Shown: positions 14,470-40,556 of the stretch, piece by piece
Position numbering within the stretch: position 1 is the first letter of the stretch
Layout: each line of letters starts with the position of its first letter
Virus record (IMG/VR): IMGVR_UViG_3300027708_000013
DNA from: a virus
Lineage: Duplodnaviria > Caudoviricetes
Length of the DNA: 64,000 nt
Direction: 5' to 3' (one strand)
The notes under the pieces: model-generated
Told to the model about the DNA's origin: nothing
The model's database searches: none
The model's input: only the letters and a program-made list of their open reading frames with translations
Program-made: the position numbers and the translations under genes

Positions 14470-14478
14470 GGAATAAAA

Positions 14479-15375: not shown

Positions 15376-15377
15376 TT

Positions 15378-15400
15378 CAATCAACCAATAGTGTTGATTG
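15378..15400 (+). terminator. Hairpin at the end of the tail operon (possible terminator)
   Basis: CAATCAAC-caatagt-GTTGATTG 8-bp stem directly after the 15375 stop; the U-tract follows about 7 nt later, so the geometry is imperfect. Confidence 0.4.
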
Positions 15401-15422
15401 GATTGGCTTTTAATGTTACAAT
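15394..15422 (+). promoter_or_regulatory. sigma70-type promoter, probably producing a leaderless mRNA
   Basis: TTGATT-17 nt-TACAAT with a TG extension; ATG 15429 lies 6 nt after the -10. Confidence 0.6.
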
Positions 15423-15428
15423 AGCAAT

Positions 15429-15743
15429 ATGACTGAACTAGAAAAACTCACTGCCGAAATACGCAGAGCCACCGATTATCACGTTAACAAAACAATACTG
15501 AGAGAAAAAATCCAAACAGATTTGCACGTGGCATACAACGGTGGATTATTTAAAGTTACACAAGAACTGTTGGCATTTGTTGCCACTTATCGTGCTGATA
15601 CCTTGTACATAGAAGATACATATCATAATCCAATCGAAGTTGACCGCGATGAGTTTCGTACTATTTGCGAACAGCACTATCAACAAGCAATGAATACCTG
15701 GCACCAACAACATGCAGAAATTAAACAACTTAGAAAAATCTAA
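15429..15743 (+). CDS. Hypothetical protein
   Basis: 104-aa ORF with promoter; first gene of the GT operon. Confidence 0.7.
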   Translation: MTELEKLTAEIRRATDYHVNKTILREKIQTDLHVAYNGGLFKVTQELLAFVATYRADTLYIEDTYHNPIEVDRDEFRTICEQHYQQAMNTWHQQHAEIKQLRKI

Positions 15744-16536
15744 GGGTGTTGTAGTATTTGCATTTAACACAGCTACAGTTGATTATGTTGCCATAGCAGA
15801 TCAAACTAGTAGATTAACTGCACATCATTTACAATTACCCATCACATTGATCACTGACCACGCCGCTGAACCCAAATTTGCATACGATGAAATCATAAGA
15901 GTCGACACCATCGGTGGCAATGTTCGCAACGACTTAAACAATCAACCAGTGGAATGGCGTAACTTTGGTAGATACCTGGCATACCAACTATCGCCCTATG
16001 ATGAAACAGTATTGCTGGATACAGATTATCTAGTACTGGACCACAGCATATTGAAACTGTGGGCCACGGAGTTTGATTACAAATTGATGCATGATAATCG
16101 AACAGCAAAGGGTATAGACACTAGCACCATGGGAGTGAATTCCTTGCCATTTGTTTGGGCCACTGTGGCGTTATTTAGACGCAGTGAACGTGCTCGATTG
16201 TTTTTCGATTTAATTGGTCGTGTGCAAAGAAACTATTCCTACTATAAAAGTTTGTACAGTATACACGAAACAAGTTACAGAAATGATTATGCTTTTGCCA
16301 TAGCCAATATAATATTGAACGGGTACACAGTGAATGCATCGCAAGGCATACCCTGGAGCATGTTTACTGTTGATCAAAAGATAGAACGGATGGCAATGAT
16401 AAATTCGCAAATTAGAATTTATCATCAGGCCACGGCAATAGTTGTACCCCGGCAATGCATACACGTGATGGATAAAGAATATTTACAAAGCGATAATTTT
16501 CAACAACTGGTAGAGGCAATAATTGAGTCAGCATAA
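15712..16536 (+). CDS. Putative GT-A fold (GT8-like) nucleotide-diphospho-sugar transferase
   Basis: LSPYDETVLLDTDYL (DxD), WATVALF and RND motifs. Confidence 0.6.
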   Translation: MQKLNNLEKSKGVVVFAFNTATVDYVAIADQTSRLTAHHLQLPITLITDHAAEPKFAYDEIIRVDTIGGNVRNDLNNQPVEWRNFGRYLAYQLSPYDETVLLDTDYLVLDHSILKLWATEFDYKLMHDNRTAKGIDTSTMGVNSLPFVWATVALFRRSERARLFFDLIGRVQRNYSYYKSLYSIHETSYRNDYAFAIANIILNGYTVNASQGIPWSMFTVDQKIERMAMINSQIRIYHQATAIVVPRQCIHVMDKEYLQSDNFQQLVEAIIESA

Positions 16537-17368
16537 AGAACCGCAAGGGTTCGTTACCTTTGCACAAAATACTGAAGAAGTGAATTACCTAGAACTGGCT
16601 TACTTGCAGTGCTTGAATGTCAAAGCCACGCAAAAGAACAACAGTTATGCTGTCATAGTGGACGCTGAAACTCGTGCTCTGGTAGAAGATCGCCATACCA
16701 AAACGTTTGATTACATCATTGATTTACCTGTGGATCACAACACCACCACTGCTAGATTTGCCAACGAGTATCAAGTGTTTGCTCTTACTCCGTTTAAAGA
16801 AACTGTCAAGTTGGAAAGCGATCTGTTGTTTACGCGAAGCATAGATCACTGGTGGACAGCATTTAGATTACGCGATGTTTGTCTCAGCACTGGTGCTAAA
16901 AATTATCGCGGCATACTATCCGGTGTAAGAAAATACCGACAGTTGTTTGATGAAAATAATTTACCCGATGTGTACAACGGTTTGATGTATTTTAGATATT
17001 CAAGACAGGCAGCGGATTTTTTCAACACAGCTGGTTTGATTTCACAGTGTTGGGATCTGTATCAAGAGCAATTGAAGAACTGTGCAGAAGAAACTCCCAG
17101 CACAGATGTGATATATGCCATTGCCGCATTGACAGTGGGCACAGATGCAGTTACTATGCCCAGTATGGACTTTATAAATTTTGTACACATGAAGTCAGGC
17201 TTCAACGGCTGGAGCGACACACAGAGTTGGTTGGACACAGTGGTGCATGAACGTGATGGCAATGTTGTACGTATCAACAACTTGAATCAATATCATCCAG
17301 TACACTACCATGACAAAACCTATGCCACCCAAGAGTTAACGGAATATTATGAATCAAGACGAACGTGA
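16523..17368 (+). CDS. GT8-like glycosyltransferase paralogue
   Basis: LTPFKETVKLESDLL aligns with the DxD region of 15712..16536; YNGLMYF; TTG start with AGAGG RBS. Confidence 0.55.
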   Translation: MSQHKEPQGFVTFAQNTEEVNYLELAYLQCLNVKATQKNNSYAVIVDAETRALVEDRHTKTFDYIIDLPVDHNTTTARFANEYQVFALTPFKETVKLESDLLFTRSIDHWWTAFRLRDVCLSTGAKNYRGILSGVRKYRQLFDENNLPDVYNGLMYFRYSRQAADFFNTAGLISQCWDLYQEQLKNCAEETPSTDVIYAIAALTVGTDAVTMPSMDFINFVHMKSGFNGWSDTQSWLDTVVHERDGNVVRINNLNQYHPVHYHDKTYATQELTEYYESRRT

Positions 17369-17708
17369 TTTTTGGGCACAAGTTGAAAGCCTGATCATCC
17401 CCATTCCTAAAGTTGAAATAGAATATAGATTGCACTACAATGAATTGGGCGAGATTGTTATGTGTAGTATGGCAGACCACCCTGAATCAAACCACTATGT
17501 TGTGGTATCAAAAGACAAATATGAACGATACTTTGATTATCGCATAGTTAAAGGACAATTAATAAAGATTGACCAAGCCAGCATTTATAGTGTAAAATTA
17601 ACTAAATCCAATACAGGCTACCGAACAGTAAAAAATCACGCTGGATTAATTATAGAGACTGGCGAATCATACTCGGAAACAGAATATTATGACCACAGAA
17701 ATCATTGA
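17349..17708 (+). CDS. Hypothetical protein
   Basis: 119-aa ORF overlapping both neighbours in the operon. Confidence 0.65.
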   Translation: MNQDERDFWAQVESLIIPIPKVEIEYRLHYNELGEIVMCSMADHPESNHYVVVSKDKYERYFDYRIVKGQLIKIDQASIYSVKLTKSNTGYRTVKNHAGLIIETGESYSETEYYDHRNH

Positions 17709-18585
17709 CGTTGCAGATTTAGATTGCATCTTTTTAACCTACAATGAACCCAATCGAGAAATCAATTGGATTAGAGTACAAAACATGGTGCCTTGGGCCA
17801 AGCGAGTAGATGGAGTCAAAGGATCGGATGCTGCACACAAGGCAGCGGCAGCGGCCAGTGACACTGATCGCTTTGTATTAATTGATGGTGACAACATTCC
17901 TGACCCTGAATTTTTTAATCTACAACTAGAGCTAGACGATACCAATCGTGACTGTGTATTTAGATGGCGGGCTAAAAATCACATAAATGGATTGATGTAT
18001 GGCAACGGTGGTGTCAGCTGTTGGACTCGAGAATTTATATACAACATGCGTACCCACGAAGCCACGGATGGTTCTGCAGAGAATGATGTAGAGTTTTGTT
18101 TTTATCCTAATTACTGGGCCATGCACGATTGTTATTCGACTACCTATCCCAATGCCACACCTGAACAGGCATGGCGAGCTGGATTCCGCGAAGGTGTCAA
18201 GATGTGTTTGGATCGTGGCGCAAGGCCCAACATGCCCGAATTTGAAAGACGTGTACACAATCGCAACTATGATCATTTATGCATTTGGCAAACTGTGGGC
18301 GCCGATGTCGAAAACGGATCATGGGCAATATACGGAGCAAGACTTGGCACATACATGACCATGATAGAAAAGTGGAACTATCGAGATGTACAAGACTTTG
18401 ATGTATTGGCAAGATTATGGCAAAGTTTTAAACAAGACGGCCCAGATCAATGTGCCAGTGTGGGAGAAACCTTACGCACACGCTTGGGATTGCCTATTGT
18501 AGACATGTCGGCTGATGCCAGTAGATTCTTCAAACATCATTACAAATCGCAGTTTAGAAATACTGGTCCCATGGCAAGAGAATGA
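17689..18585 (+). CDS. Putative GT-A (GT2-like) glycosyltransferase
   Basis: IFLTYNEP..VDGVKG..AH..FVLIDGDN (DxD); paralogous to the C-terminal domain of 35454..37487. Confidence 0.55.
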   Translation: MTTEIIDVADLDCIFLTYNEPNREINWIRVQNMVPWAKRVDGVKGSDAAHKAAAAASDTDRFVLIDGDNIPDPEFFNLQLELDDTNRDCVFRWRAKNHINGLMYGNGGVSCWTREFIYNMRTHEATDGSAENDVEFCFYPNYWAMHDCYSTTYPNATPEQAWRAGFREGVKMCLDRGARPNMPEFERRVHNRNYDHLCIWQTVGADVENGSWAIYGARLGTYMTMIEKWNYRDVQDFDVLARLWQSFKQDGPDQCASVGETLRTRLGLPIVDMSADASRFFKHHYKSQFRNTGPMARE

Positions 18586-18635
18586 TAAATTTAACAAATA
18601 GAGCCGGTGGTGGTTTAATTAAAGGATTTACATAA

Positions 18636-19355
18636 ATGAATTTACTTATTAATGGAGGTTCGATTAGTCGTGGACCCACTAGCTGGCCGTACGCCATACA
18701 AAAAAAATTTAATAGTAATATTGTAAACCTATCACAAGCTGGTGCCGGTAATACTTATCTACACGAAACAACAATATCAGAGTTAGCACAAAGAACATAC
18801 GATTTAGTTATTGTACAGTGGGTACCTTTTATACGTATTGATTATAAAGTGCAAAATATTGAATTATTTAATAATACAATATTTACATCAAATTATCAAT
18901 ACAAACAGAATGACTGGCCTGGTAAAATAATTTATCCGATTAATGATCAAGATTATGTAGAAAAAGATTGGATCTTTGGTTGCGGATATGCTGTTAATCA
19001 AGACAGAGATCCAAATATAGTCAAGGTATTTGAAAATTATTATCAATATATTGGGTCATCAGAGCAAACATATCATTTATTAATAAAAATGATCTCCCTA
19101 CAAAGTTATTTAAAAGCAAACTCAATTCCTTATTTGTTTTGTTTTGGTAGAAAATTTAAAACATTTGACAGACATAGGCATTTGTTTAATCAACTTGACA
19201 TGAACCATATGTATGTCGATCAATTTTTACTTGATATTGCAGAAAACAACAACATGTGGGATGTCACCGATCAGTCCCACCCTAGCCCAGAAGCATATGA
19301 AATATACGCAAACTTATTGATAGAAAAAATCCAAGGACTGATGATACGCGAATGA
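18636..19355 (+). CDS. SGNH/GDSL-like hydrolase or acyltransferase
   Basis: LLINGGSIS (block I), QAGAGN (block II) and a C-terminal HPS His. Confidence 0.55.
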   Translation: MNLLINGGSISRGPTSWPYAIQKKFNSNIVNLSQAGAGNTYLHETTISELAQRTYDLVIVQWVPFIRIDYKVQNIELFNNTIFTSNYQYKQNDWPGKIIYPINDQDYVEKDWIFGCGYAVNQDRDPNIVKVFENYYQYIGSSEQTYHLLIKMISLQSYLKANSIPYLFCFGRKFKTFDRHRHLFNQLDMNHMYVDQFLLDIAENNNMWDVTDQSHPSPEAYEIYANLLIEKIQGLMIRE

Positions 19356-20299
19356 AATTTGTTATAATACCAGCTGATAATTTTATATGGAATCAATCGG
19401 AGTTAATGTCGTTCTTGGTGAACAATCAAGAGAAAGATATACTGTTGTCAGTTAATAGCGAAGGATGTTGCCTCAATGCTATTGGTGTATACAAAATTTT
19501 AGATTTATTTAAATTTAAATCAGTGACTATATTATCTAATAACATTTTTGAATCTCATAACACCTATAACATAGTTAATGCTCAATCTTACTTTAAATTT
19601 TTTCAGATTGAAAAAGAATACAAAGAGTATCATGTATGGAATAACTCTAAGCTGTTTGGAGCTCTGTACAATCGACCAATATGGCATCGAATTGGTATTG
19701 CAAGTCACTTGTATGCAAATCACAGGACAGTCAGCATGGTAAATTTTCGAGCCAACCCACATGATGAGGACAGTCGAACACTTTTTGAACTACAGTCCTT
19801 GTTTGAAACAGATCCTGCATCGGTTGAGAACTTTATACAAACATATAAAAAATTTCCCGCACTGCTGAAAGAATTTGACGACTATACTGTTGGAGCCACA
19901 ACAACGCAACACACCGACCAATTGTGCAAATTATACACTGAGTTTTTAATTGATATTGTAGCAGAAACATTCACCAGTGGTAAAACTTTTTTTGCTACTG
20001 AAAAAACAGTAAGACCAATATTGCTTAAAAAACCATTTATTATAATGGGCCCAAAGTGCTTTCTAATACATCTACGGCAAATGGGATTTAAAACATTTAA
20101 TGACTATTGGAGCGAAGATTACGATGGATATGAACCAAAACAAAAATACAAAATGATATTAGAATCGATAGATAATATAGCATCTAAATCACAGCAAGAA
20201 ATAAGTTCCATGTACGCAGACATGCAAGAAATATTGGAACACAATTATAATTTGCTAATCAATAAAAAATTTCTAACTAAATTGACCTATGTTGGATAA
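19352..20299 (+). CDS. GT10/fucosyltransferase-motif-like protein
   Basis: IVAETF..FATEKTVRPI..KPFII.G..LRQMGFKTF motif shared with three paralogues. Confidence 0.45.
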   Translation: MKFVIIPADNFIWNQSELMSFLVNNQEKDILLSVNSEGCCLNAIGVYKILDLFKFKSVTILSNNIFESHNTYNIVNAQSYFKFFQIEKEYKEYHVWNNSKLFGALYNRPIWHRIGIASHLYANHRTVSMVNFRANPHDEDSRTLFELQSLFETDPASVENFIQTYKKFPALLKEFDDYTVGATTTQHTDQLCKLYTEFLIDIVAETFTSGKTFFATEKTVRPILLKKPFIIMGPKCFLIHLRQMGFKTFNDYWSEDYDGYEPKQKYKMILESIDNIASKSQQEISSMYADMQEILEHNYNLLINKKFLTKLTYVG

Positions 20300-21674
20300 A
20301 AGCGTATTCATGTCAGCAGCCGAAGAGATGCAAGCAAAACTTGGCAACTCACTCTGCTTGGCCAAATGGCAACAAGTGAGCCTACATCTTCCCACCGGTC
20401 TCAATAATTCGTGTTACCATCCACCATTGCATGCCATAGATGCTGATGCTGTAAAACTCAATCCCAGTGCATTACACAACACCGAACACAAGAAACAGCA
20501 ACGCATCATCATGTTGAAAAATGAACAACCTGCAGAGTGTAGTTACTGTTGGAACATAGAACGACATGATCAATTAAGCGACAGACATTATAGGTCAGGA
20601 GAACCGTGGGCCGCAGAACACTACGAAGCAATCAAAAACTCTCGAGGAGATGAAGATGTTGTACCCAGTTATGTGGAAGTTAATTTTAATCATGCTTGTA
20701 ACCTTGCTTGCAGTTATTGTAGTCCGCAGTTTAGTTCAACATGGCAAGCGGAAGTGGATCGATGGGGAGGGTACCCAACTACAACAATTCATAACGACCC
20801 TAGTCATTTTACTGGTCGTAATAGGCCAATCCCGGCCAGTCATGAAAATCCTTACGTAGAGGCATTTTGGTCATGGTGGCCAGAACTGTACCCCAAACTG
20901 CGACACTTTAGAATGACCGGTGGTGAACCATTGATGGACCGCAACACTTATCGGGTATTTGATTATGTGTTGGCCATGCCAAAACCAGATCTACATTTAA
21001 ATGTCACCAGCAACTTCAGCGTGGACCAGGCGTTGTTTGAACGATATTTGGACTATGTAAAACAGTTATGTGCAATACAGATAGAACATTTCATGCAGTA
21101 TGTCAGCTTGGATTCTGGCAACATCAAACATGCAGAATATATCAGGCATGGTCTCAACATGAATAGATTACATGAATATGTCAACAGATATTTGACAGAA
21201 GTGCCCCACCGTAACAGTCTGACATTCATTATCACCATGAATAATTTAAGTGTGCTGGGCCTACAACGTCAATTGCAATGGATACTGGATTTAAGAAAAC
21301 GTCACAGCACCACATATCAACGTGTTTGGTTTGATACTCCCTTGCTACGCACACCCACCTGGCAAAGCCTACAGATACTGCCACCTGTATACACAGGTGT
21401 GTTGGAACGTGTGTCCGACTGGATGGAACTGAACTTGGAAACAGAGGAAGATCCATTCCAAGGTTTTAAAGACTACGAAGTACAACGCCTACGCAGAGAC
21501 ATAGCATGGATGCAGGAAGGTTGCAAGTTAGACCCCGACTATGTTAAACTACAACGTGCAGACTTTTATCGGTTCTTCAATGAACACGACAAAAGGCGTC
21601 AAACAGATTTTTTAACTACTTTTCCCGAAATGCGTGAATTTTGGAAAGAATGTGAATACCATGCCAAGAATTGA
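20289..21674 (+). CDS. Radical SAM enzyme with N-terminal twitch/SPASM-like domain
   Basis: CNLACSYC, MTGGEP; N-terminal CLAKW..SCYH..CSYCW. Confidence 0.85.
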   Translation: MLDKSVFMSAAEEMQAKLGNSLCLAKWQQVSLHLPTGLNNSCYHPPLHAIDADAVKLNPSALHNTEHKKQQRIIMLKNEQPAECSYCWNIERHDQLSDRHYRSGEPWAAEHYEAIKNSRGDEDVVPSYVEVNFNHACNLACSYCSPQFSSTWQAEVDRWGGYPTTTIHNDPSHFTGRNRPIPASHENPYVEAFWSWWPELYPKLRHFRMTGGEPLMDRNTYRVFDYVLAMPKPDLHLNVTSNFSVDQALFERYLDYVKQLCAIQIEHFMQYVSLDSGNIKHAEYIRHGLNMNRLHEYVNRYLTEVPHRNSLTFIITMNNLSVLGLQRQLQWILDLRKRHSTTYQRVWFDTPLLRTPTWQSLQILPPVYTGVLERVSDWMELNLETEEDPFQGFKDYEVQRLRRDIAWMQEGCKLDPDYVKLQRADFYRFFNEHDKRRQTDFLTTFPEMREFWKECEYHAKN

Positions 21675-23022
21675 CAATGAGACCGACTTAGAATACAAAA
21701 AAAGAGTAATTGACATCAAGAGCGAAAGCTTTTGTGCGGCCAAATGGTACAACGCCACCATATGGTTGGGATCAGGTCAAACCACCAGTTGTCATCATCC
21801 ATTACCACATGCCATAGATATCGACGAGATTCGAACCAATCCCAAGGCCATACACAACACACAACGGAAAAAAATGGAACGCGAACAGATGCAACGCGGA
21901 GAACGTCCCGCAGGTTGTGAGTACTGTTGGAAGATTGAAGACATCGGGCGAGACAACATAAGTGATAGAGTTTACAAAACAGTTATATATTCAGATGAGG
22001 ATTTGAGAAATGCATTCGCTAGGCCAGCCAGCACAGATGTGGATTTACAAACGCTTGAAATTGCTTTTGATCGCACATGCAATTTTGGGTGTAGTTACTG
22101 TAACCCTGCTTTCAGCAGCACTTGGGTTAAAGATATTGACACCATGGGTGCTTATACCGGCCTCACTTCAGACGGTAGGAATCATTACACTCATAATCAT
22201 GCAAGTAGTCAGCTTTATCGCTTTGGTGAAAGTAATCCTTACGTTGAAGCGTTCTTTGCATGGTGGGAGTCAGATCTCCATCGCACACTTCAGGAGCTTC
22301 GATTAACTGGTGGAGAGCCACTGATGTCGGGCGACACCTGGAGATTATTGGAATGGTTCAAGAACAACAACAGTCGAGTCAACCCTGACATGCGGTTTGC
22401 CATCAACAGCAATCTTGGCGCCAAACCAGAATTGATTGATCGACTTGTTGCGGCCGCCCACAGCATCAAGCATTTTCACCTGTACACCAGTAACGAAGCA
22501 ACAGGTGTACAAAGCGAATACATTCGTGATGGGCTGGTATGGGATACATGGACTGCCAATGTGGAACAGGTGTTGCGTGATGCTGACCTAGAAGGATTTC
22601 ACATTATGTGTACCATCAACGCATTATGCTTGGATAGTTTAACTGATTTTTTGGATCAATGCCTGGAGTGGAAAGACCTATGTGGCCGAGACTTCCCTAC
22701 ATTCTCACTAAATATATTACGCTTTCCAAGTTTTCAAAGTCCTTTAGTGTTGCCAGATGACATACGCAACGGCTATAAACTTAAATTACAAGCATGGTTC
22801 AACACAAATAAAAACAATCAGTTATTACATCAATTTGAAACCAATCAAGTACAACGCTTGATAGACTATTTAGATGTAGTCAAAACTCCGCATGTGGGTG
22901 CAGCAGAACAAAGCGTATTACAACAGGACTTTAAGAAATTTTATACACAATACGACCAACGCAGAGGCAAAAACTTTACAACAACATTTCCCAACCTAGC
23001 AGAATGGTATGACTCGTTCTAA
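21661..23022 (+). CDS. Radical SAM enzyme with N-terminal twitch/SPASM-like domain
   Basis: CNFGCSYC, LTGGEP; N-terminal CAAKW..SCHH..CEYCW. Start moved to ATG 21661. Confidence 0.85.
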   Translation: MPRIDNETDLEYKKRVIDIKSESFCAAKWYNATIWLGSGQTTSCHHPLPHAIDIDEIRTNPKAIHNTQRKKMEREQMQRGERPAGCEYCWKIEDIGRDNISDRVYKTVIYSDEDLRNAFARPASTDVDLQTLEIAFDRTCNFGCSYCNPAFSSTWVKDIDTMGAYTGLTSDGRNHYTHNHASSQLYRFGESNPYVEAFFAWWESDLHRTLQELRLTGGEPLMSGDTWRLLEWFKNNNSRVNPDMRFAINSNLGAKPELIDRLVAAAHSIKHFHLYTSNEATGVQSEYIRDGLVWDTWTANVEQVLRDADLEGFHIMCTINALCLDSLTDFLDQCLEWKDLCGRDFPTFSLNILRFPSFQSPLVLPDDIRNGYKLKLQAWFNTNKNNQLLHQFETNQVQRLIDYLDVVKTPHVGAAEQSVLQQDFKKFYTQYDQRRGKNFTTTFPNLAEWYDSF

Positions 23023-30478: not shown

Positions 30479-30554
30479 CAGAATTGTACTAGAACGACGT
30501 TATCGTAAGAAGTTAAAAGAGTTGCGTCGAAGAGATCCGTTTATTTACAAATGA
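30453..30554 (+). CDS. Small basic peptide MNWLRNLYNRIVLERRYRKKLKELRRRDPFIYK (33 aa; absent from the ORF track)
   Basis: AGGAG RBS at 30441-30445, ATG at 30453, TGA overlapping the next ATG (ATGA at 30551-30554); fills the gap between two genes exactly. Confidence 0.8.
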   Translation: MNWLRNLYNRIVLERRYRKKLKELRRRDPFIYK

Positions 30555-33358: not shown

Positions 33359-33367
33359 AGGAAACAC

Positions 33368-34159: not shown

Positions 34160-34368
34160 ATGACACCGCTGTTAGAAGTCTAGCCAAAGCTGTCAGTTGG
34201 CGAGTGACTGGAACTGTAGATACATTCCTAATAAGTTGGCTGATCACCGGTGAAGTGCTGTTGGCATCAGGTATAGCACTCACTGAAATAATCACTAAGA
34301 TATTTTTATTTTGGATGCACGAGCGAGTGTGGAACAGGATCTCTTGGGGACAGCAACGGCAAGATTAG
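34156..34368 (+). CDS. DUF2061-like small membrane protein
   Basis: RSLAKAVSWRVTGTVDT..HERVW pattern; ATGA overlap with the upstream gene. Confidence 0.75.
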   Translation: MNDTAVRSLAKAVSWRVTGTVDTFLISWLITGEVLLASGIALTEIITKIFLFWMHERVWNRISWGQQRQD

Positions 34369-35455
34369 TTTGCAACTCCTGCCAGCAATGATCTAAAAAA
34401 TCATTACTGTAAAACAGATTGTAGTTGTGATTTAATATGGGTGTCATTTCTCTCAACATGAATTCAAGATCCTGCATACCGTAACTGCAAATTTCCTCAA
34501 TCACCTCTGCCACAGCAGTCATGCGTAAGATGGGATCTTCTATGGCATCGTAACTTTCGTTGAACCAACGTCCGAATGTTCTAAAGCCATAACTGCGTAG
34601 GTATTCCAAGTTGTGTGCTGGTCCCACTAATACAAATGGCATACGACTCACAATGGGTTTGAATATTTTTTCAGTTAAATGACATTTGTGTTCCCAGTAA
34701 CAAGTTTCTGTAACCACGTAAACAAAACTTTCCTGTGTCTGTTCTACAGCACTCAGCACAAAACTATGATTGGGAATCGATTCATGGTCCTGATAATCTA
34801 TGCGTAACGGTAGTTGAATTTGGTTGATACTAGCAACAGCTTGCTCAGCAACAACTCTTGGCACCAAAGCCGAGGATAATAAATTTTCTTGATAAGTACC
34901 ACCTTCAGGACAGACATCATTGTAACTAACGTATCCATCATCGAGTATGTCACGTTGAAGCAATTCACTGATTAAGAGACTACGGTAAACTCGTGGTCCA
35001 CTGGTTAGTCGATTAAAGGTGATATATTTTTTAGTTAGTTGCCTTTCACCTGGTGCAATTAATAAAGGATTGTAACGGTATCCGCGAAACCAATCGTTTG
35101 CAGAAAAAGCGTGATGGAAATAATAAACAACCGGGCAACTGTATCGTTCTTGTATTAGATCTACCGAGTTGGAATTTTTTTCGGTTGTAACTAATATAAA
35201 CTGATCACCATCTAAGAAGTTTTTGCACACTTGATCAAATACGGGATAATTAAATTCTCCCAGTACGGGCTCTTGATCATAAAATACAAATAGAGGTCCG
35301 CGTTTTCCTGGCCAATGGCCCATATCAGTCATTAAGAATTCAAAATTTTCTGGTTGAGTTGAACCGTAGGGCATTAGGTAAATGAGCCTGGGATCTGTTA
35401 CAATAGTGTTTAAATACGAAAAGATATTTTCGTAATGACTGTGGATATTATACAT
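34295..35455 (-). CDS. GT10-motif-like protein
   Basis: VVTET..HLTEKIFKPI..MPFVLVG..LRSYGFRTF. Confidence 0.5.
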   Translation of the reverse strand: MYNIHSHYENIFSYLNTIVTDPRLIYLMPYGSTQPENFEFLMTDMGHWPGKRGPLFVFYDQEPVLGEFNYPVFDQVCKNFLDGDQFILVTTEKNSNSVDLIQERYSCPVVYYFHHAFSANDWFRGYRYNPLLIAPGERQLTKKYITFNRLTSGPRVYRSLLISELLQRDILDDGYVSYNDVCPEGGTYQENLLSSALVPRVVAEQAVASINQIQLPLRIDYQDHESIPNHSFVLSAVEQTQESFVYVVTETCYWEHKCHLTEKIFKPIVSRMPFVLVGPAHNLEYLRSYGFRTFGRWFNESYDAIEDPILRMTAVAEVIEEICSYGMQDLEFMLREMTPILNHNYNLFYSNDFLDHCWQELQTNLAVAVPKRSCSTLARASKIKIS

Positions 35456-37487
35456 GTTTGATGTTTTTTATTGGGGACCTAAACCCAATTTATTTGCTTT
35501 TGAACGGCCCGCTGACAATTTGGATCATGCGGCCGCTTTGTCACGAACAGGCCGCTACTGGTATATTTATGGTGGCAATGACTACACAGGATTTGATTTT
35601 GATTATCAACCAGTTCCTTGGGAAAGTCAGCACGTACATGTTTGGCCCAGTCAATGGCAAAGAAACGGTGGCGTGTATCTGGCCGATCGAAATACTGTAC
35701 ACAACAGAGAGTGGCATTTTAGAACTGAACAACAGGTTGTTAGACAGCCCGACCGGGATCAATGGAAGATACCCAACAATATAGACACCGCAGAGTTTGA
35801 TTTCTCCTGGCATCCTGATCCACTGGAACCGGATTACAGTTACTATTTTCCCACACAACACCAATCAGCCGGCGGCCCTGTATACCCGGGCACTGCTGGG
35901 ATAAAATTAGTTGCAGATCAAACTGCTCGAGCAGTGCCTGTGCAGGAATCGTGGAGCATACCTCCAGGAATTGATACCGCAGAGTTTGATTTCTCGTGGC
36001 ATCCAGACCCTAGAGAACCCAACTACAGTTACCAATTTCCTACCCAGCATCAGCGAGATGGCGGTCCTGTGTATCGAGGATCGGCCGGAATAAAATATGT
36101 CACTGATCAACGTATTCGCGCCAATGCTGTACAGATATTTTACATGGATTTTTTAAATGGAACTATGGCACAGCATCAATTTGAATACCTACGCACCAAA
36201 CATCCTGACATTAAACGAACAAGATACGTAGACAATCATCTCACAGTGTTCCGTAGAATCATGTTCATGGCCACTACAGAATTTGTTTGGATCATCAGCA
36301 GTGTTTGTGATTACACTGATTTTGATTTCACATGGCACCCTCCGGAAGAACAAAGAGAAATGATTCATTGTTTCCCCACAGGTGTTCAGAAACGTGGTGA
36401 TACATTTCGCATACATGTAGAATCATTTAAACGACAAATGATTGAACTAGAACTGTTGGATTGGTTCAACGTAATTAACTATGTTGAAGATCACCCAGTG
36501 AATCGTTTTTCGATTCCTGTTCATTATTATGAATCAGACGATTTAGTTACAGAAATAAAGAAATACCAGTTCGAAACACCGTATGTGTTATTTACAAATC
36601 GAAGAGATGTGCGATATTTACAAACTCAAATTGAAAGTACTGAGTGCTTGTGGAGTCCTAAAGACCGTGTGGTTTCGCGGTGTAGCGAAGCCGGTAGTAC
36701 TGTGTTCGTACCCCGCGACGTCAAGGTGGATTTGAAGTCGCAAATCTACGATTATCCCTACATCAAGGACTCGGTTTATAGGTTTTGCGACCCTAGATTA
36801 GATATTGTATACATTAGTAACGGAGAACCCGACGAACAACGCTGGCACGATCATTTGGTAAACGGCACAGGCCAATTGGACAGTTATACATATGAAAATC
36901 GGGTACAATGGGTGCGTGGCGTCAATGGTAGAACAGCCGCTTATCAAGAAGCCGCACGTCGATGTTCGACCCCTTGGTTCTTTGCTGTGTTTGCTAAATT
37001 GGAAGTAGTTGCCGATTTTGATTGGACCTGGATGCCGGACTATTTCCAAGAACCCAAACACTATATCTTCAACAGCCGTAATCCTGTAAATGGCTTGGAG
37101 TATGGTCATATGGGTATAATCGCTTATAACAAGAGATTGGTGCTGGAAAATAACACACCCGGCATTGATTTTACCTTGAGTCAACCTCATGAAAGTGTTC
37201 CTGTACTTTCTGGTGTAGCACACTTCAATCAAGATGCTTGGATGACATGGAGGACTGCATTCCGTGAAGTGGTCAAACTCAAACACTTCATGGCAGTAGA
37301 ACCCACCGTGGAAACAGAACATAGACTAAATACTTGGCTGACAGTGGCTGAAGGCAATTTTGCCGAATACTGTTTGGCCGGTGCCCGGGACGCTGTAGAG
37401 TACTACGATCAAGTTGCGGGAGATTATGAACTGCTGAAGTTGAGTTTTGATTGGGCCTGGCTGAAACAACGTTTTGACAATAAATAA
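35454..37487 (+). CDS. Repeat-containing protein with a degenerate GT2-like C-terminal domain
   Basis: 63-aa tandem duplication plus recurring FDF(S/T)WxP motifs; C-terminal domain paralogous to 17689..18585 but lacking DxD. Confidence 0.6.
   Translation: MFDVFYWGPKPNLFAFERPADNLDHAAALSRTGRYWYIYGGNDYTGFDFDYQPVPWESQHVHVWPSQWQRNGGVYLADRNTVHNREWHFRTEQQVVRQPDRDQWKIPNNIDTAEFDFSWHPDPLEPDYSYYFPTQHQSAGGPVYPGTAGIKLVADQTARAVPVQESWSIPPGIDTAEFDFSWHPDPREPNYSYQFPTQHQRDGGPVYRGSAGIKYVTDQRIRANAVQIFYMDFLNGTMAQHQFEYLRTKHPDIKRTRYVDNHLTVFRRIMFMATTEFVWIISSVCDYTDFDFTWHPPEEQREMIHCFPTGVQKRGDTFRIHVESFKRQMIELELLDWFNVINYVEDHPVNRFSIPVHYYESDDLVTEIKKYQFETPYVLFTNRRDVRYLQTQIESTECLWSPKDRVVSRCSEAGSTVFVPRDVKVDLKSQIYDYPYIKDSVYRFCDPRLDIVYISNGEPDEQRWHDHLVNGTGQLDSYTYENRVQWVRGVNGRTAAYQEAARRCSTPWFFAVFAKLEVVADFDWTWMPDYFQEPKHYIFNSRNPVNGLEYGHMGIIAYNKRLVLENNTPGIDFTLSQPHESVPVLSGVAHFNQDAWMTWRTAFREVVKLKHFMAVEPTVETEHRLNTWLTVAEGNFAEYCLAGARDAVEYYDQVAGDYELLKLSFDWAWLKQRFDNK
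35763..36110 (+). repeat. Intragenic tandem duplication, 189-nt period
   Basis: WKIPNNIDTAEFDFSWHPDPLEPDYSY.. at 35763 and WSIPPGIDTAEFDFSWHPDPREPNYSY.. at 35952. Confidence 0.9.
37481..37486 (+). promoter_or_regulatory. Late-type promoter core TAAATA
   Basis: caaTAAATA just before ATG 37492, overlapping the end of the upstream gene. Confidence 0.45.
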
Positions 37488-37491
37488 TAAT

Positions 37492-38190
37492 ATGAGATCC
37501 AGTGAATTTATAACATCTAACAGAGTAGCAGATTTAACTCCCGCTCAAATTGGGCGTATTTTTGAAAATATACTCAACCCTAACGTATTGTTAGAAGGCA
37601 TTAATCCGCAAGCTGCCGCAGAGGTTAAGCAAGCTACCAATTCCACTATACAAAAAATACTCGCTGTTCCAGCCGGTGCTGTACAAACATTTGATCAAGA
37701 TGTCGCACAACTAGAACAAAAAATAATGGGATCAATCAAAGATCCTGAAGAGAAAAAAACTGTTTTACATTATCTAGGAAGGTATCAATTGTGGGCAAAA
37801 AAGCATCCTGTGACACAGGCCGCAATTTTAGCTACTCTGGCGGTGCTTGCAGGTGCAGCCGTAGGAACACTCACTGGTGCTATTGTAATCGGTCTTCTTA
37901 AAACAGTAGATGAATTGGTATTGGGTAAAAAAGCACATGAAGCTGTTGGTGCAGGTGTTGTAGCTGGTGGATTAGCCTGGGGTATAGGCAAGGCACTGGA
38001 ATTTGCCGCTGGTACTGAACTAGTTAAAAGTGCTGCTCACTGGGCCGCGGATACGGTGGGCGATATTGGCAAGGCTGGTGCCCGCGGAATAGCGGCTGGT
38101 GCTCGCAGTGTGGCTGGTGTAGCATCCGGTGTATATGGAGATACTGTAAAAGGATTAAAAAATATAGCCGGTGGTGGCGGCTATTATTAA
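37492..38190 (+). CDS. Hypothetical protein with a hydrophobic Ala/Gly-rich region; possible internal head protein
   Basis: Start moved to MRSSEFI (37492); hydrophobic AAILATLAVLAGAAVGTLTGAIVIGLL segment. Confidence 0.6.
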   Translation: MRSSEFITSNRVADLTPAQIGRIFENILNPNVLLEGINPQAAAEVKQATNSTIQKILAVPAGAVQTFDQDVAQLEQKIMGSIKDPEEKKTVLHYLGRYQLWAKKHPVTQAAILATLAVLAGAAVGTLTGAIVIGLLKTVDELVLGKKAHEAVGAGVVAGGLAWGIGKALEFAAGTELVKSAAHWAADTVGDIGKAGARGIAAGARSVAGVASGVYGDTVKGLKNIAGGGGYY

Positions 38191-38202
38191 CGCAAATACC
38201 AG

Positions 38203-38547
38203 ATGCGTATACACGAAATCTCCGTACCTCAATATAAAGAAATAGAATTTGTCTGTGCCAATGCAGAGCATCCTGACGCTACAGATCCCGCTGTGCAACG
38301 AAAACTGTATAGAGAATTACAAAAAATCCCCGGAGTAATACCTTTATATCAAGACTGGACCGATTACAGTGAAGGTCAATATAGTTTAAGTGCTATATAT
38401 AAAGACCGTGCTGTTCGTGGTAAAATTTTATCACTGGCTCGGCAGTTGGGTGTGGAGGTTGATGTGGAACAAACAGTGGATGGGGACTATGTTGATCGTG
38501 CCTTAACAGGTAGTCACGAAGGACAAATTAACGCAGATAATTCTTAA
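38203..38547 (+). CDS. Hypothetical protein (MRIHEI N-terminus); possible internal head protein
   Basis: 114 aa, follows 37492 on the same strand. Confidence 0.6.
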   Translation: MRIHEISVPQYKEIEFVCANAEHPDATDPAVQRKLYRELQKIPGVIPLYQDWTDYSEGQYSLSAIYKDRAVRGKILSLARQLGVEVDVEQTVDGDYVDRALTGSHEGQINADNS

Positions 38548-39634
38548 CCGCATTGACCACACTTTCAACTTCCGTGTCACGCAGTTCAGGATAAATCGGT
38601 AAGCTGATTGCTTCTCTCGAAAACGCTGTAGATTCTCTAAACAATTCTCTAGCATAGTCAATATAGTTGTAACCCACAGGCAATTCAAACAAGGGTGTGT
38701 CATAGTGGAAACGTGAGTCGATTCCACAACTCTGTAAGTAATCACGCAGGCCATGACGTTCGCTCAAGCGTATTACAAATTTACTCCAGGCCGAAGTTAC
38801 GTGTTCACCGGGTAATACCACATCCACCCATTCCGCAAGTTCTTGTGTATAGTATTCGGCGATAGCCTGTCTACGTGTTTGCCAAGCATCAAAGTATTTG
38901 AGTTTGACCAACATTTGAGCTGAATCGCTTTCGCTCATTTTGCTGTTGGTGCCAATGAAGCAATGATCCAGGTATTTGCCATTGTCACGTAAATTTAGTA
39001 ACTGATGATAAACATCAACATCGTCCGTGAGCACCATGCCACCTGAACCATAGTTATTTAGATTCTTGGTAGGGTCAAAACTCAACACACCGATGTCACC
39101 AAGACTGCCCGAGGGTTGGTCCTTGTATCTAGCACCAAAACTCTGTGCAGCATCTTCTATCACACGTATGTTGCTGTTGAAAAACTCTGTTTGCAGTCTA
39201 AATCTATCATAGTCTACAACATGTCCAAACAGGTTGGCATACATGATACAGTTAACCCCAGCTCCGGTTAGGGCCATGTCCATGCTTTCTAAATCTATCA
39301 GTGCTGCATCATCGGTGTCGCAAAACACCGGAGTATTGCCGGCATACAGTACCGAGTTGATGGTGGCTGCAAAACTCAAGGTGGGAATTAACACACGAGA
39401 TTCCTGTGCCAATATCACTTGTTGTGCAAAAATCAATCCCTGTGTGGCACTGTTCACTGCCACTGCATATTCTCGATCACATCGACGGGCTATGGCTGTT
39501 TCGAACCGTCGAGTCGAGTCACCATCTAACACCTGCCCGGATCTGTACACTTGATCCACAGCATCAAGTATCTCTTCACGCAGAGTCAAGAATTGACGAT
39601 CAACGCCGAAGAAGGGTATCCGTGATCCACTCAT
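38528..39634 (-). CDS. DegT/DnrJ/EryC1/StrS PLP-dependent sugar aminotransferase
   Basis: MSGSRIPFFG start (39634), VNSATQGL, IEDAAQSFG, SFDPTKNL (PLP lysine), SLPIYP. Confidence 0.9.
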   Translation of the reverse strand: MSGSRIPFFGVDRQFLTLREEILDAVDQVYRSGQVLDGDSTRRFETAIARRCDREYAVAVNSATQGLIFAQQVILAQESRVLIPTLSFAATINSVLYAGNTPVFCDTDDAALIDLESMDMALTGAGVNCIMYANLFGHVVDYDRFRLQTEFFNSNIRVIEDAAQSFGARYKDQPSGSLGDIGVLSFDPTKNLNNYGSGGMVLTDDVDVYHQLLNLRDNGKYLDHCFIGTNSKMSESDSAQMLVKLKYFDAWQTRRQAIAEYYTQELAEWVDVVLPGEHVTSAWSKFVIRLSERHGLRDYLQSCGIDSRFHYDTPLFELPVGYNYIDYARELFRESTAFSREAISLPIYPELRDTEVESVVNAVKNYLR

Positions 39635-40556
39635 GATATTTTCTAAATCCTGACTCAATGTCTGTGGTGCCACGATAACCAAAGTCTTCGCCGGCACGTA
39701 TGTTACTTAATGTTCCTCTTGATGGAAATCTAGGATTGGCATCGACAATTTTTATTCTGCCACCACCGGCTATCTTCACTGCCAATTCGGCAGCTTCCAC
39801 CAAACTTCTTGCCTCACCTCGGGTAATATTATATGTTCTACCACTGCTGTTGAAATTGACAGCGGCACGAACAATACCATCCACTACATCATCCACATAG
39901 GTAAAATCCAACAGTTCTCTGGCGCCACACACAGTCAATTCTTCATTGCGTATGGCCGAGAGTAAAAATCTACTCACAACTCTATCAACAACATCATGTG
40001 GGCCATACACAGCACTGGGCCGAACCACAACATGGTCAATGCCGGCTGTTCTACAAAGATCTCTAGTAAGAGTTTCACCAGTGAGTTTTAATATTCCGTA
40101 GATGCCACGTGGCCTGCACTGCATGTCTTCATAGGCCAAGGGAGCAAAGTCACCGTACACCATGCTGCTACTGATGTAAACAAATCTGCGTAACTGTACC
40201 TGCTCGCTGGCACGAAGTAGATTTATCAATCCTTGTGTCAACACTTGACTGCCTTCTGCAGGATTTAAATCCACTGCTTTGGCTCGGGGATATGCTGCAC
40301 AGTGTATAACCACATCCGGACGACATTCTTCAAACGCATTTACGACGTAATTGTAGTTTCTAATGTCTACATTGTGTATGCTCTGTGTTGAGATACGGTC
40401 AAGACGTTGTTGATGTAGGGGAGTTAATTCTGCGTCAGGTATAATACCATAGTTGGTAAAGTTGTCCAGCACACAAACTTCATGACCTTGATGTTCTAAT
40501 AGTCGTACTACGTTGTGTCCAATAAATCCAGCACCGCCGGTTACTAGAAATTTCAT
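39600..40556 (-). CDS. NAD-dependent NDP-sugar epimerase/dehydratase
   Basis: VTGGAGFIG, SSSMVYG, YGILK (YxxxK), RPSAVYGP, DFTYVDD. Confidence 0.9.
   Translation of the reverse strand: MKFLVTGGAGFIGHNVVRLLEHQGHEVCVLDNFTNYGIIPDAELTPLHQQRLDRISTQSIHNVDIRNYNYVVNAFEECRPDVVIHCAAYPRAKAVDLNPAEGSQVLTQGLINLLRASEQVQLRRFVYISSSMVYGDFAPLAYEDMQCRPRGIYGILKLTGETLTRDLCRTAGIDHVVVRPSAVYGPHDVVDRVVSRFLLSAIRNEELTVCGARELLDFTYVDDVVDGIVRAAVNFNSSGRTYNITRGEARSLVEAAELAVKIAGGGRIKIVDANPRFPSRGTLSNIRAGEDFGYRGTTDIESGFRKYHEWITDTLLRR

Follow-up and report, generated by a model that had tools for sequence, protein, structure and literature searches.

We have found, in a freshwater jumbo phage, a strongly conserved block of about 23 kb, rich in radical SAM and sugar enzymes, located directly 3' of the tail-fibre genes. 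In the 64,000-nucleotide stretch of DNA analyzed here (the window), the region from 15.4 to 40.6 kb carries genes for sugar-transferring and sugar-decorating enzymes. The explanation that we favor, although tentatively and at somewhat less than even chances, is that the block encodes a conserved cytoplasmic pathway of the phage by which a glycan is built and heavily modified, most likely on the virion fibres. Presence and identity were counted over 50 related IMG/VR loci (full loci). Ten core genes were all present in 45 of them and colinear in 44 of these 45, and because of this colinearity the gene set appears to be a functional unit and not a chance collection. Random shuffling of the genes among relatives, which the initial annotation had named as an argument against such a pathway, was not seen. 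The core genes were 55–75% identical among relatives vs. about 41–45% for the adjoining fibre genes, and most neighboring genes of the block have stop/start overlaps. About five genes are lineage-specific inserts, GT-B and SGNH genes among them. The block had been placed before at 15712–40556, next to the tail genes, and nearly every item listed for it was recovered; its contents stand, but the conserved unit begins at 15429, and the DegT and SDR genes at the other end are on the minus strand together with ThyX and DHFR.

The tail-fibre-like genes (13138..15375, plus strand) have PHROG tail-fibre and virion-protein matches and a weak Peptidase_G2 match, and are found upstream of the cluster in 35–42 of the 50 loci. 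In the product of the first (13138–14469), a fibre N-terminal domain is combined with an intramolecular-chaperone-like domain at the C-terminus, and the second (14479–15375) codes for a protein with 31% S/T and zero Lys, an S/T-rich composition being ordinary among phage fibres. In the window, 80 IMG/VR loci and the distant phage L159 alike, the block comes after the fibre genes and has their orientation, and the association with fibre or structural genes persists in both L159 and the also distant RsoM2USA. We infer that the acceptor is most likely a virion protein rather than the host surface, the candidates being the Ser/Thr-rich fibre proteins whose genes directly precede the block; it would then be the fibre or the virion surface that becomes glycosylated. 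The conserved unit starts with a small protein of 104 aa (15429..15743, plus strand; 43/50 loci, median identity 58%), preceded by a terminator-like hairpin with a 14-bp stem and a promoter-like site. Another small conserved protein (17349..17708, plus strand, 119 aa; 46/50 loci) has a similar-sized ORF at its position in both RsoM2USA and L159. Neither had a family match in the profile search. Two ORFs at 37474..38547 (plus strand), one Gly/Ala-rich with one hydrophobic segment (37474–38190) and one of 114 aa (38203–38547), are lineage-specific, with no family matches and no homolog among the 80 loci. Lake metatranscriptome contigs were identical to pieces of the cluster, DNA carry-over being possible in those libraries.

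The transferases are of GT-A-like and GT-B types. Two paralogous GT8-like (glycogenin-like) GT-A transferases (15712..17368, plus strand; 15712–16536 and 16523–17368) are present in all 50 loci and share an invariant D105 in "LDSDY", plus H251 and K255. Their diversified profile matched only glycogenin-1 and -2 in PDB (E 2.9e-5), spanning the N-terminal half and the DxD motif, and did not match Pfam GT8. A third putative glycosyltransferase, GT2-like and with the DxD motif "LIDGDN" (17689..18585, plus strand), is among the best-conserved genes of the cluster (50/50 loci, median identity 72%) and has a homolog 38% identical in RsoM2USA. It matched Glyco_tranf_2_3 below the Pfam cut-off (E 0.0018), its family gave weak GT2 matches in 3/17 and 2/17 members, and there was no match of the family to PDB sequences. 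The GT2-like and GT8-like assignments, both below Pfam cut-offs, are weak. The degenerate fourth GT-A domain that had been proposed is the C-terminal domain of a 677-aa protein (35454..37487, plus strand), a paralog of 17689 that in the alignment has VFAK in the place of DGD; the protein had no Pfam or NCBIfam match. Three proteins described before by a GT10 motif (19352, 26254 and 34295, here family D) are indeed paralogs with a common E-T...T-E-K...P-F..G block and GT-B fold, but their membership in GT10, the family of the Pfam-bearing Atlas clusters nearest to 34295, is a lead only. The conserved copy (34295..35455, minus strand; 36/50 loci) gave a model of pLDDT 87 whose top Foldseek PDB matches were all GT-B transferases (E about 2e-4). 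The accessory copy at 26254..27318 (plus strand; HMM E 7e-66) is without an ortholog in any of the 50 full loci, and the third (19352–20299) forms with a DUF6071/SGNH gene (18636–19355; Pfam DUF6071, 27.5 bits) an accessory insert (18636..20299, plus strand), whose two genes appeared in 17 and 8 loci out of 50, respectively. The two glycogenin-like, the GT2-like and the GT-B enzymes would assemble an oligosaccharide on a soluble acceptor.

All five radical SAM genes reported initially (20289, 21634, 23734, 25037 and 27305) have CxxxCxxC and four invariant N-terminal Cys, and the three that were scanned scored 286–403 bits against the NCBIfam model N_Twi_rSAM (NF033640, cut-off 170 bits). Radical SAM 1 and 2 (20289..23022, plus strand; 20289–21674, with 290 bits, and 21634–23022) are sister orthogroups present in 50/50 loci. 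Radical SAM 3 and 4 (23734..26254, plus strand; 23734–25050, with 403 bits, and 25037–26254) have SPASM and Radical_SAM Pfam domains, and it is with the 23734 type that bacterial homologs cluster in the orthogroup tree. Radical SAM 5 (27305..28600, plus strand; 286 bits) was found in every one of the 50 loci with median identity of 75%. Each of the five orthogroups had 99% support and was single copy per sampled genome. Since N_Twi_rSAM genes are scattered across these genomes (7–16 matches per relative, weak sub-cut-off ones included), fibre adjacency says little about them. Their heterogeneous neighborhoods in bacteria also count against the favored explanation; in its support, the SGNH family is found at a distance of 10 kb or less from the N_Twi_rSAM genes at 12 of the 77 bacterial loci.

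Of the SPASM/twitch radical SAM enzymes characterised so far, the majority act in the maturation of peptides or proteins. The substrates of the five enzymes, alone or together with the SGNH proteins, might therefore be fibre or other virion proteins, which would receive changes such as cross-links, epimerisation or oxidation, the transferases being a separate glycosylation function. Weak matches to sactipeptide and other maturases go in this direction, as does RsoM2USA, where the SGNH/radical SAM/carbamoyltransferase block is physically apart from the transferases. We consider this distinctly unlikely, however: nothing like a precursor-peptide gene was found, nor any RiPP recognition element, protease or exporter; the twitch region can be aligned with the sugar (aminocyclitol) dehydrogenase BtrN; and radical SAM genes are accompanied by GT-B and SGNH genes in a second cluster of one relative (G003), and by a carbamoyltransferase whose type is that of small-molecule/sugar enzymes. 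We found no characterised member of the radical SAM, DUF6071 or 28582 families. If the enzymes, which belong to an unstudied family, act on a glycan, the chemistry would be so far undescribed.

Under the glycan reading, decoration would be carried out by these five N-terminal-twitch enzymes, the SGNH (DUF6071) esterase/acyltransferase-type proteins, a cyclophilin-like-fold protein and an O-carbamoyltransferase. Five SGNH-like proteins had been counted; four (18636, 23009, 29660 and 30551) match DUF6071/GDSL, two of them above the Pfam cut-off. The two core proteins (29660..31219, plus strand; 29660–30478 and 30551–31219, with 25.5 and 36.7 bits; 42–43/50 loci) retain G-x-S, G-x-N and His blocks, and the accessory one at 23009..23749 (plus strand; 1/50 loci) scored 20 bits, below the cut-off, with an SGNH HMM E of 2e-36. 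The fifth (32666..33358, plus strand; 3/50 loci), an accessory and possibly degenerate protein, has only the G-x-S block and a C-terminal His, had no Pfam match and was missed by the SGNH HMM built without it. The conserved enzyme-like protein at 28582..29682 (plus strand) has 66 invariant residues across 23 orthologs and is predicted to form a cyclophilin-like beta-barrel with a helical insert (pLDDT 86.7). Its model had no Foldseek PDB match, its AFDB relatives are all uncharacterised, and VIA-align gave cyclophilins at Z 7–8.6, the background level of that search. The carbamoyltransferase (31200..32675, plus strand; 49/50 loci), of the NodU/CmcH/TobZ superfamily, has both Pfam domains strong (Carbam_trans_C 167 bits, Carbam_trans_N 126 bits), but is not an equivalog of NodU, as which it was first annotated (133 bits vs. 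a cut-off of 1000). In PDB it is closest to NovN, GdmN and TobZ, and its homolog in RsoM2USA is 45% identical.

For donor supply, the minus strand carries at 38528..40556 a DegT/PseC-like sugar aminotransferase (38528–39697; 254 bits) and an epimerase-type extended SDR (39600–40556; Epimerase 161 bits, best PDB match 6zl6); a DegT aminotransferase and an NDP-sugar epimerase had been named initially. The SDR has SSSMVYG and YGILK motifs, and is of epimerase type in that SSSMVYG stands in place of the TDE signature of dehydratases. They are the last genes of a DHFR-ThyX operon, with matching order (DHFR-ThyA-SDR-DegT) in the relative G001, and, so co-expressed, would turn host nucleotide-sugars into amino-sugar donors. 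A further activated donor may be provided by the predicted kinase/nucleotidyltransferase fusion (33368..34159, plus strand), with an APS-kinase-like P-loop N-terminus (Pfam APS_kinase 43 bits, residues 5–90; APS kinases in PDB, E 2e-5) and a C-terminal HxGH/ISxT part (WHAGH and ISATKIR motifs; weak NMNAT-type match over 156–224). The sulfation suggested initially is unsupported: it had this weak, partial P-loop as its sole basis, and the search of the cluster gave neither a sulfotransferase nor an ATP sulfurylase.

Transferases, carbamoyltransferase and radical SAM enzymes could also decorate a modified base of the phage DNA, giving resistance to host nucleases. A phage NodU-type carbamoyltransferase making 5-carbamoyloxymethylcytosine is known (PMC8670742), T4 beta-glucosyltransferase is among the fold matches of family D, DegT and SDR share the operon of ThyX and DHFR, and three SGNH genes and a family D GT-B gene adjoin PTPS/QueD-like and FolE genes at 55–63 kb. 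In the MetaGPA study, however, DNA-acting carbamoyltransferases co-occurred with a ThyA-like hydroxymethylase, and those flanked by glycosyltransferases sat on unmodified contigs (PMC8670742). The five complete relatives each have a single PF00303 gene, a canonical ThyA (the one examined passes thymidylate synthase equivalog cut-offs), and at the operon position where relatives carry ThyA, this phage has ThyX. TET/JBP and TGT were found in none of the five and QueC in at most one, in searches where control genomes also gave no TET match and phage DpdA is divergent. The canonical ThyA, the ThyX of the window and the lack of TET argue against decoration of 5-hydroxymethyl-pyrimidine DNA, and the transferase block is linked to structural and not to replication genes. 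The proposal is thus weakened and we hold it to be quite improbable; what is supported of the original interpretation is an uncharacterised sugar-building and decorating pathway and its link to fibre and structural genes.

No cluster enzyme has a TM segment, the only TM-like one being in 37474, and flippases, polymerases and polyprenyl-phosphate transferases had no matches in the cluster, which has no exporter. This is compatible with a host-surface target as well, since most bacterial O-antigen/LOS glycosyltransferases, including GT8 enzymes such as LgtC and RfaI/J, are likewise peripheral proteins with no TM segment. The soluble enzymes might modify host undecaprenyl-linked O-antigen, capsule or LOS intermediates at the inner membrane face, to be exported by host flippases and ligases, and the altered surface would block superinfection or keep progeny off debris. 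Surface glycans with carbamoyl and O-acyl decoration are a known theme, and some Bacteroidota have N_Twi_rSAM genes beside GT1, SGNH and UbiA genes. We regard this as rather unlikely. The cluster and its conserved flanks lack an initiating transferase, a ligase and an acyltransferase-3 membrane protein, and flippase and polymerase are equally missing; the block travels with late structural genes and not with early host-takeover genes; known examples of host-envelope remodeling come from temperate phages, but the phage described here is a jumbo phage of T4-like lytic type; and all members of a clade whose divergence reaches 50% identity would need a compatible host pathway.

The enzyme set is similar to those for the tailoring of aminoglycosides, novobiocin and moenomycin, with a twitch radical SAM (BtrN), DegT, GT-B, a TobZ/NovN-type O-carbamoyltransferase and a MoeE5-like epimerase. 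The product might accordingly be a small molecule that diffuses, or a modified nucleotide-sugar, directed at the host or at competing phages. Examples would be a metabolite resembling aminoglycosides, moenomycin or nucleoside antibiotics, or a nucleotide analogue of the viperin kind, viperin being the weak best PDB match of the radical SAM profile. Such a product is nevertheless very unlikely, as the cluster has no scaffold-forming enzyme (2-deoxy-scyllo-inosose synthase, prenyltransferase, PKS or NRPS), exporter or self-resistance gene and its position is conserved within the late structural region. A link to the virion is also seen in the cultured Ralstonia phage RsoM2USA, where a block with two GT8-like, a GT2-like and radical SAM genes comes after the structural genes ORF355-364; of these, ORF356 and ORF359 were detected by virion mass spectrometry. 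The decorating enzymes that RsoM2USA keeps in a separate block are, in the phage described here, in one cluster with the transferases.

A search of IMG/VR with one radical SAM protein of the cluster recovered 80 loci with identities of 50–91%, the longest contig among them reaching 357 kb; the conservation counts refer to the 50 loci with full 10-kb flanks. Ten genes, named here by their first coordinate, were considered the core: the GT8-like 15712 and 16523 (family A), the GT2-like 17689, the radical SAM genes 20289, 21634, 23734, 25037 and 27305, the gene 28582 and the carbamoyltransferase 31200. All ten were present in 45 of the 50 loci, and in 44 of these 45 they were colinear on one strand. 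Median identity was 55–75% for the core enzymes, with the exception of 15712 (46%), and 41–45% for the fibre-like genes 13138 and 14479 located upstream. Genes 18636, 19352, 23009, 26254 and 32666 were each found in 0–17 of the 50 loci, and the recurrent "slots" they occupy are filled in other lineages by different GT-B or SGNH genes or by additional radical SAM genes. Random shuffling among relatives, named in the initial annotation as evidence against a functional unit, was thus not seen, a result that clearly speaks for such a unit, and the annotation's account of the gene content held with minor corrections. Our analysis indicates that the cluster is probably a conserved pathway of glycan assembly and tailoring. 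This part of the earlier interpretation is well supported, whereas sulfation is unsupported and the decoration of 5hm-pyrimidine DNA is disfavoured. No match was obtained for the block as a whole when 50,697 phage records were searched by megablast.

The window belongs to a jumbo phage genome of ~341 kb that comes from freshwater or lake metagenomes. The genes between 15429 and 38547 lie, with few exceptions, on the plus strand, mostly with overlapping stop and start, and the sole sizeable gap ahead of the block is found at 15376–15428. A hairpin with a 14-bp stem and a T-run (15372–15422, plus strand) overlaps there a promoter-like TTGATT-17-TACAAT with a TG extension, and judging from its sequence the site may be a transcription-unit boundary between the fibre genes and the cluster. 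Overall, the sigma-70 and terminator scans gave results at chance level, as did the occurrence of a candidate late-promoter motif, AACAAWTAGAG. The region upstream of the cluster contains a giant ORF (>2,495 aa) and a number of fibre-like genes; the latter show PHROG tail-fibre and virion-protein matches, domains of the PA14 and Gly-rich types and a weakly matched intramolecular-chaperone domain. In one protein of the fibre region (11158–13113, plus strand), which is 21% Gly and has long poly-Gly runs, a Gly_rich_2 domain is accompanied by a PA14-like carbohydrate-binding domain at the C-terminus. The block adjoins a minus-strand operon, DHFR-ThyX-SDR-DegT, at 38.5 kb. Further along the minus strand, the region 44530–46997 codes for a DUF2201 metallopeptidase/VWA-like protein adjoining a MoxR-type AAA ATPase, the latter with 49% identity to that of the Pseudomonas jumbo phage PA5oct and its relatives, indicating that this clade is distantly related to cultured jumbo phages. 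The gene at 48495–49547 (minus strand) codes for a 350-aa fusion of a P-loop NTPase and a GNAT acetyltransferase domain (phrog_11143, function unknown). Two lake metatranscriptome libraries contained short contigs identical to pieces of the cluster (fibre genes, all radical SAM genes but one, GT-B genes, one SGNH, 28582 and the carbamoyltransferase); DNA carry-over in these libraries is possible, and they give weak support to transcription of the cluster in nature.

The glycosyltransferase-like genes could be assigned at different levels. Pfam Glyco_transf_8 had no match in sets of 36 and 48 family A members, and an alignment-based large-database search with profile A1 recovered only close, unannotated orthologs. 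Once diversified with representatives from a search of 1.8 billion proteins (profile A7), the family had PDB matches only to glycogenin-1 and -2 (19 distinct sequences, E 2.9e-5 to 4e-4), spanning the N-terminal half as far as the DxD ("LDaD"). For this reason we call family A GT8-like, with membership unproven; in metagenomes it amounts to ~2,200 clusters at 50% identity. Gene 17689 scored 18.8 bits against Glyco_tranf_2_3 (cut-off 27) with a match covering the DxD region, weak GT2 matches appeared in 3/17 and 2/17 members of its family, and the DGD is invariant in its orthologs. PDB sequence searches with this family, including the diversified profile A8, gave only noise, and hhalign of family A with the 17689 family aligned the two DxD regions without significance (probability 0.08). 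The degenerate fourth GT-A-like transferase reported before could be traced to the C-terminal domain of 35454, a paralog of 17689 with VFAK in place of DGD. As for family D (19352, 26254 and 34295), its predicted structure (pLDDT 87) matched only GT-B glycosyltransferases in Foldseek, with TarM, SenB, OtsA and SdgB as the best hits and plant FUT13 in eleventh place. The GT-B assignment came from this fold search, the profile giving noise against PDB sequences. The motif E-T...T-E-K...P-F..G is present and the nearest Pfam-bearing Atlas clusters are GT10 (score 0.80), while Pfam Glyco_transf_10 had no match to the family. Hence, the GT-B fold is confirmed at the level of the model, and GT10 is a lead only.

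The five radical SAM genes are mutual paralogs (21–32% identity). Three of them were scanned against NCBIfam NF033640 (N_Twi_rSAM, "twitch domain-containing radical SAM protein"), with scores of 290 bits for 20289, 403 for 23734 and 286 for 27305 over a curated whole-protein cut-off of 170. The main-cluster matches in the five complete related genomes, five in each, scored 273–412 bits. All five proteins carry CxxxCxxC, preceded by four cysteines invariant across paralogs and orthologs (C42, C60, C102 and C105 in the numbering of 23734). Their SPASM Pfam domain is N-terminal, and BtrN aligns with this region through its C-terminal twitch domain (E 4e-4). In the tree the five genes correspond to five orthogroups, with 99% support each and one member per sampled genome, indicating that the paralogs predate the clade. 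A single radical SAM of the cluster matched more than 6,700 proteins in metagenomes.

The five complete relatives (G001–G005) have between 7 and 16 N_Twi_rSAM matches each, weak ones below the cut-off included, five of them in the cluster and the others scattered. For a phage, this genome-wide expansion represents an unusually large set of radical SAM genes, and G003 contains a second array (198–216 kb), in which four radical SAM genes have GT-B and SGNH genes as neighbours. A co-localisation of the extra family D GT-B genes with the extra radical SAM copies was considered over the five genomes, and the hand count of ~5–6 of 18 within 5 kb versus ~16% expected was not convincing. The bacterial homologs, with 30–40% identity, come mainly from Bacteroidota, Bdellovibrionota and Alphaproteobacteria and are mostly single genes in mixed contexts. 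We found no conserved operon around them (PhyH in 4/54 neighbours; GT1, UbiA and GDSL in 3/54 each), and a DUF6071-type SGNH gene was located within 10 kb in 12 of 77 loci. One contig of a Bacteriovoracaceae MAG (UBA6144; L089, 6046–18042) contains nine N_Twi_rSAM genes in a row, covering all five phage orthogroups at 27–55% identity, and near this array no GT8-like, GT2-like or carbamoyltransferase gene was recognisable. The array may belong to a prophage or to a mis-binned phage, or it may be a bacterial counterpart. A literature search for DUF6071, for N-terminal twitch radical SAM enzymes or for jumbo phages with radical SAM and glycosyltransferase genes found nothing. GT-B, SGNH and carbamoyltransferase genes recur as neighbours of the radical SAM genes, and from this, together with the BtrN-like twitch domain, we infer that a carbohydrate is more likely than a peptide as substrate of these enzymes.

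Among the decorating enzymes, the SGNH proteins 30551 and 18636 reached 36.7 and 27.5 bits against DUF6071 (PF19547; cut-off 27), with 29660 (25.5) and 23009 (20.1) below it. These four retain the Ser of block I, the Gly and Asn of blocks II and III and the His of block V, G-x-S and the C-terminal His being invariant and G-x-N present in most. The fifth candidate, 32666, was not recognised by an SGNH HMM built without it, and has only G-x-S and the His in common. Gene 31200 belongs to the NodU/CmcH/TobZ superfamily, with 126 bits for Carbam_trans_N and 167 for Carbam_trans_C (cut-offs 24 and 27) and NovN, GdmN and TobZ as PDB relatives (E 1e-33 to 1e-49), the first two being the closest. The earlier designation as a NodU carbamoyltransferase is therefore right for the superfamily and not for NodU proper (NF041651, 133 bits versus 1000). 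Gene 33368 is an APS-kinase-like P-loop joined to an HxGH/ISxT nucleotidyltransferase. Only its residues 5–90 match APS kinase (43 bits), every equivalog cut-off was missed, and no ATP sulfurylase or sulfotransferase family was matched within the cluster, so that sulfation is unsupported.

The putative donor-forming genes adjoin the block on the minus strand. The DegT gene (38528–39697) gave a full-length match of 254 bits (cut-off 19.8), its closest equivalog being PseC (170 bits versus a cut-off of 423). For the SDR (39600–40556) we considered an NDP-sugar 4,6-dehydratase of the RmlB type and rejected it; S-S-S-M-V-Y-G stands where T-D-E is expected, with YGILK, which indicates an epimerase-type SDR. 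Its best PDB match was an epimerase-domain protein (6zl6), and it scored 113 bits against the dTDP-glucose dehydratase equivalog (cut-off 365). Gene 28582 is among the best-conserved genes, with 66 invariant residues, and its clear relatives are all uncharacterised proteins. Its predicted structure (pLDDT 86.7) had no match in PDB by Foldseek, the PDB sequence search gave noise and the Atlas feature search was blank. The model suggests a cyclophilin-like barrel with a helical insert, a tentative call since the structural-alignment Z of 7–8.6 is the background level of that search.

Parts of the same arrangement were found in more distant genomes. Locus L159, labelled as Rickettsiales bacterium MED657 and most likely a distant phage contig binned into a bacterial MAG, has in this order, at 25–46% identity, a fibre gene, 14479-like and 15429-like genes, two GT8-like genes, a small ORF, a GT2-like gene, a radical SAM, an SGNH and a GT-B. 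In the cultured Ralstonia phage RsoM2USA (344 kb) the module is split in two, and all the homologs are annotated as hypothetical. ORF353–348 (two GT8-like genes, a small ORF, GT2-like, radical SAM and GT2-like) follow directly after ORF355–364, annotated as sheath, baseplate and structural genes, among them ORF356 and ORF359 detected by virion mass spectrometry (PMC8504454). Some 90 kb away, ORF203–199 code for an SGNH, a radical SAM (53% identity to 21634), two more SGNH and a carbamoyltransferase (45% identity). This split indicates that the transferase sub-module is tied to structural genes, and that the sub-module of SGNH, radical SAM and carbamoyltransferase is separable. An SDR epimerase-like gene, ORF358 (L161, 13585–14562), with 24% identity to the SDR at 39600–40556, is located in RsoM2USA between the annotated sheath gene ORF359 and the verified virion protein ORF356.

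No TM-like segment was found in any of the cluster enzymes, the lineage-specific 37474 being the only gene with one, and the family scans of the cluster gave no match to flippases, polymerases, ligases or polyprenyl-phosphate transferases. On this basis the chemistry is cytoplasmic, which fits a protein or a nucleic-acid acceptor. The host surface may also be reached, with cytoplasmic enzymes acting on host lipid-linked intermediates. In the case of nucleic acid, the cluster would decorate a modified base in the phage DNA, something we consider quite improbable. Speaking for it, a second small set of the same families is found at 55491–60435 (minus strand), with three DUF6071/SGNH-like genes (55491–56189, 56191–56889 and 58761–59483), a 283-aa gene without assigned function and a fourth family D GT-B (59485–60435). 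A 5'-3' exonuclease lies on one side and, on the other, also on the minus strand, there are a PTPS/QueD-like gene (60625–61251), a weak xanthine-PRTase-like ORF (61338–61889) and a GTP cyclohydrolase I, FolE (61886–62635). This stretch, 60625–62635, may represent a pterin/folate module, or else a 7-deazaguanine module may begin here. The known phage 5hmC carbamoyltransferase, however, occurs together with a ThyA-like hydroxymethylase, and the carbamoyltransferases flanked by glycosyltransferases in that study were on unmodified contigs (PMC8670742). A single PF00303 gene was present in each of the five complete relatives, and in G001 this gene scores above the thymidylate synthase equivalog cut-offs and is located in the same DHFR-x-SDR-DegT operon. 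Where the window has a ThyX beside the DHFR (40553–41732, minus strand), the relatives have at the same operon position a ThyA and no ThyX (DHFR-ThyA-SDR-DegT; in G001, L162 5615–6995). This looks like a non-orthologous displacement within one phage clade and points to ordinary dTMP synthesis. TET/JBP was found in 0/5 relatives, a weak negative since the TET control matched no control genome; with the ThyX and the canonical ThyA, it disfavours the decoration of 5hm-pyrimidine DNA. TGT was found in 0/5 and QueC in at most 1/5, against a deazaguanine/DpdA system in the relatives, though FolE was present in 5/5.

The virion or its fibres are the best-supported target, and we give the combined statement of a glycan pathway with this acceptor somewhat less than an even chance. 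A bolder proposal, which we regard as doubtful, is that the N-terminal-twitch radical SAM enzymes are a new carbohydrate-tailoring class, five of which, acting in series and together with DUF6071 acyl-handling enzymes, a new cyclophilin-like-fold enzyme and the carbamoyltransferase, would produce a hypermodified tail-fibre glycan in a widespread clade of freshwater jumbo phages. If true, this virion glycan would be the first one built by radical SAM enzymes, and receptor-binding surfaces would have a diversification system driven by the phage. No characterised member exists for at least four core families (N_Twi_rSAM, DUF6071, the GT8-like family A and that of 28582), and jumbo phages from many lake and freshwater samples keep the core families fixed in order. 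Solving the pathway would provide functions for several large "dark" families at once, besides new radical carbohydrate chemistry. With the virion as acceptor, T4-like jumbo phages would join mycobacteriophages and giant viruses in having glycosylated virions, with consequences for host recognition, stability and evasion of antibodies or defences in phage applications. The question is accessible to experiment in RsoM2USA, which is in culture and has the module in reduced form.

In mycobacteriophages, capsid and tail-tube proteins reportedly carry glycans that alter the surface properties of the virion. There, like here, phage-encoded soluble glycosyltransferases are located within or beside the structural gene block, and this position is the only feature of that type found in our phages. 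The mycobacteriophage system has one to few transferases and no tailoring enzymes, whereas here there are ~7 transferase-like genes, five radical SAM, four or five SGNH and a carbamoyltransferase; the host may be of Gram-negative type and the glycan is a predicted one. Systems of phage DNA glycosyltransferases have reportedly been described as well (Pyle et al. 2024, cited in PMC12619734). These and the 5hmC carbamoyltransferase systems (PMC8670742) resemble the cluster in that a phage NodU/TobZ-type carbamoyltransferase and phage GT-B transferases are encoded in clusters, but they depend on a ThyA-like hydroxymethylase or TET in place of the thymidylate synthases found here. The aminoglycoside and Nod-factor sets (BtrN, TobZ, DegT-type; NodU, NodL, NodZ, NodPQ) use the same enzyme classes on amino-sugars, namely twitch radical SAM, O-carbamoyltransferase, PLP aminotransferase, fucosyltransferase-like transferases and an APS-kinase-like domain. 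The cluster differs from them in having no scaffold synthase, sulfotransferase or ATP sulfurylase, and in the twitch domain, N-terminal here and C-terminal in the aminoglycoside-type BtrN. Among the giant viruses, chloroviruses have capsid glycans and Mimivirus has fibril clusters making viosamine and bacillosamine. Their route is also virus-encoded, from an SDR and a DegT-type aminotransferase to glycosyltransferases, with GT8-like and GT-B enzymes, and it decorates surface fibres. Unlike here, these are eukaryotic viruses, and we know of no radical SAM, DUF6071 or carbamoyltransferase steps in their glycosylation. The N_Twi_rSAM family itself consists in bacteria mostly of single genes, while in these phages five conserved orthogroups follow one another and further copies are found elsewhere. 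What sets this probable virus-encoded glycosylation apart is the series of five radical SAM enzymes of an unstudied family, accompanied by several uncharacterised conserved enzymes.
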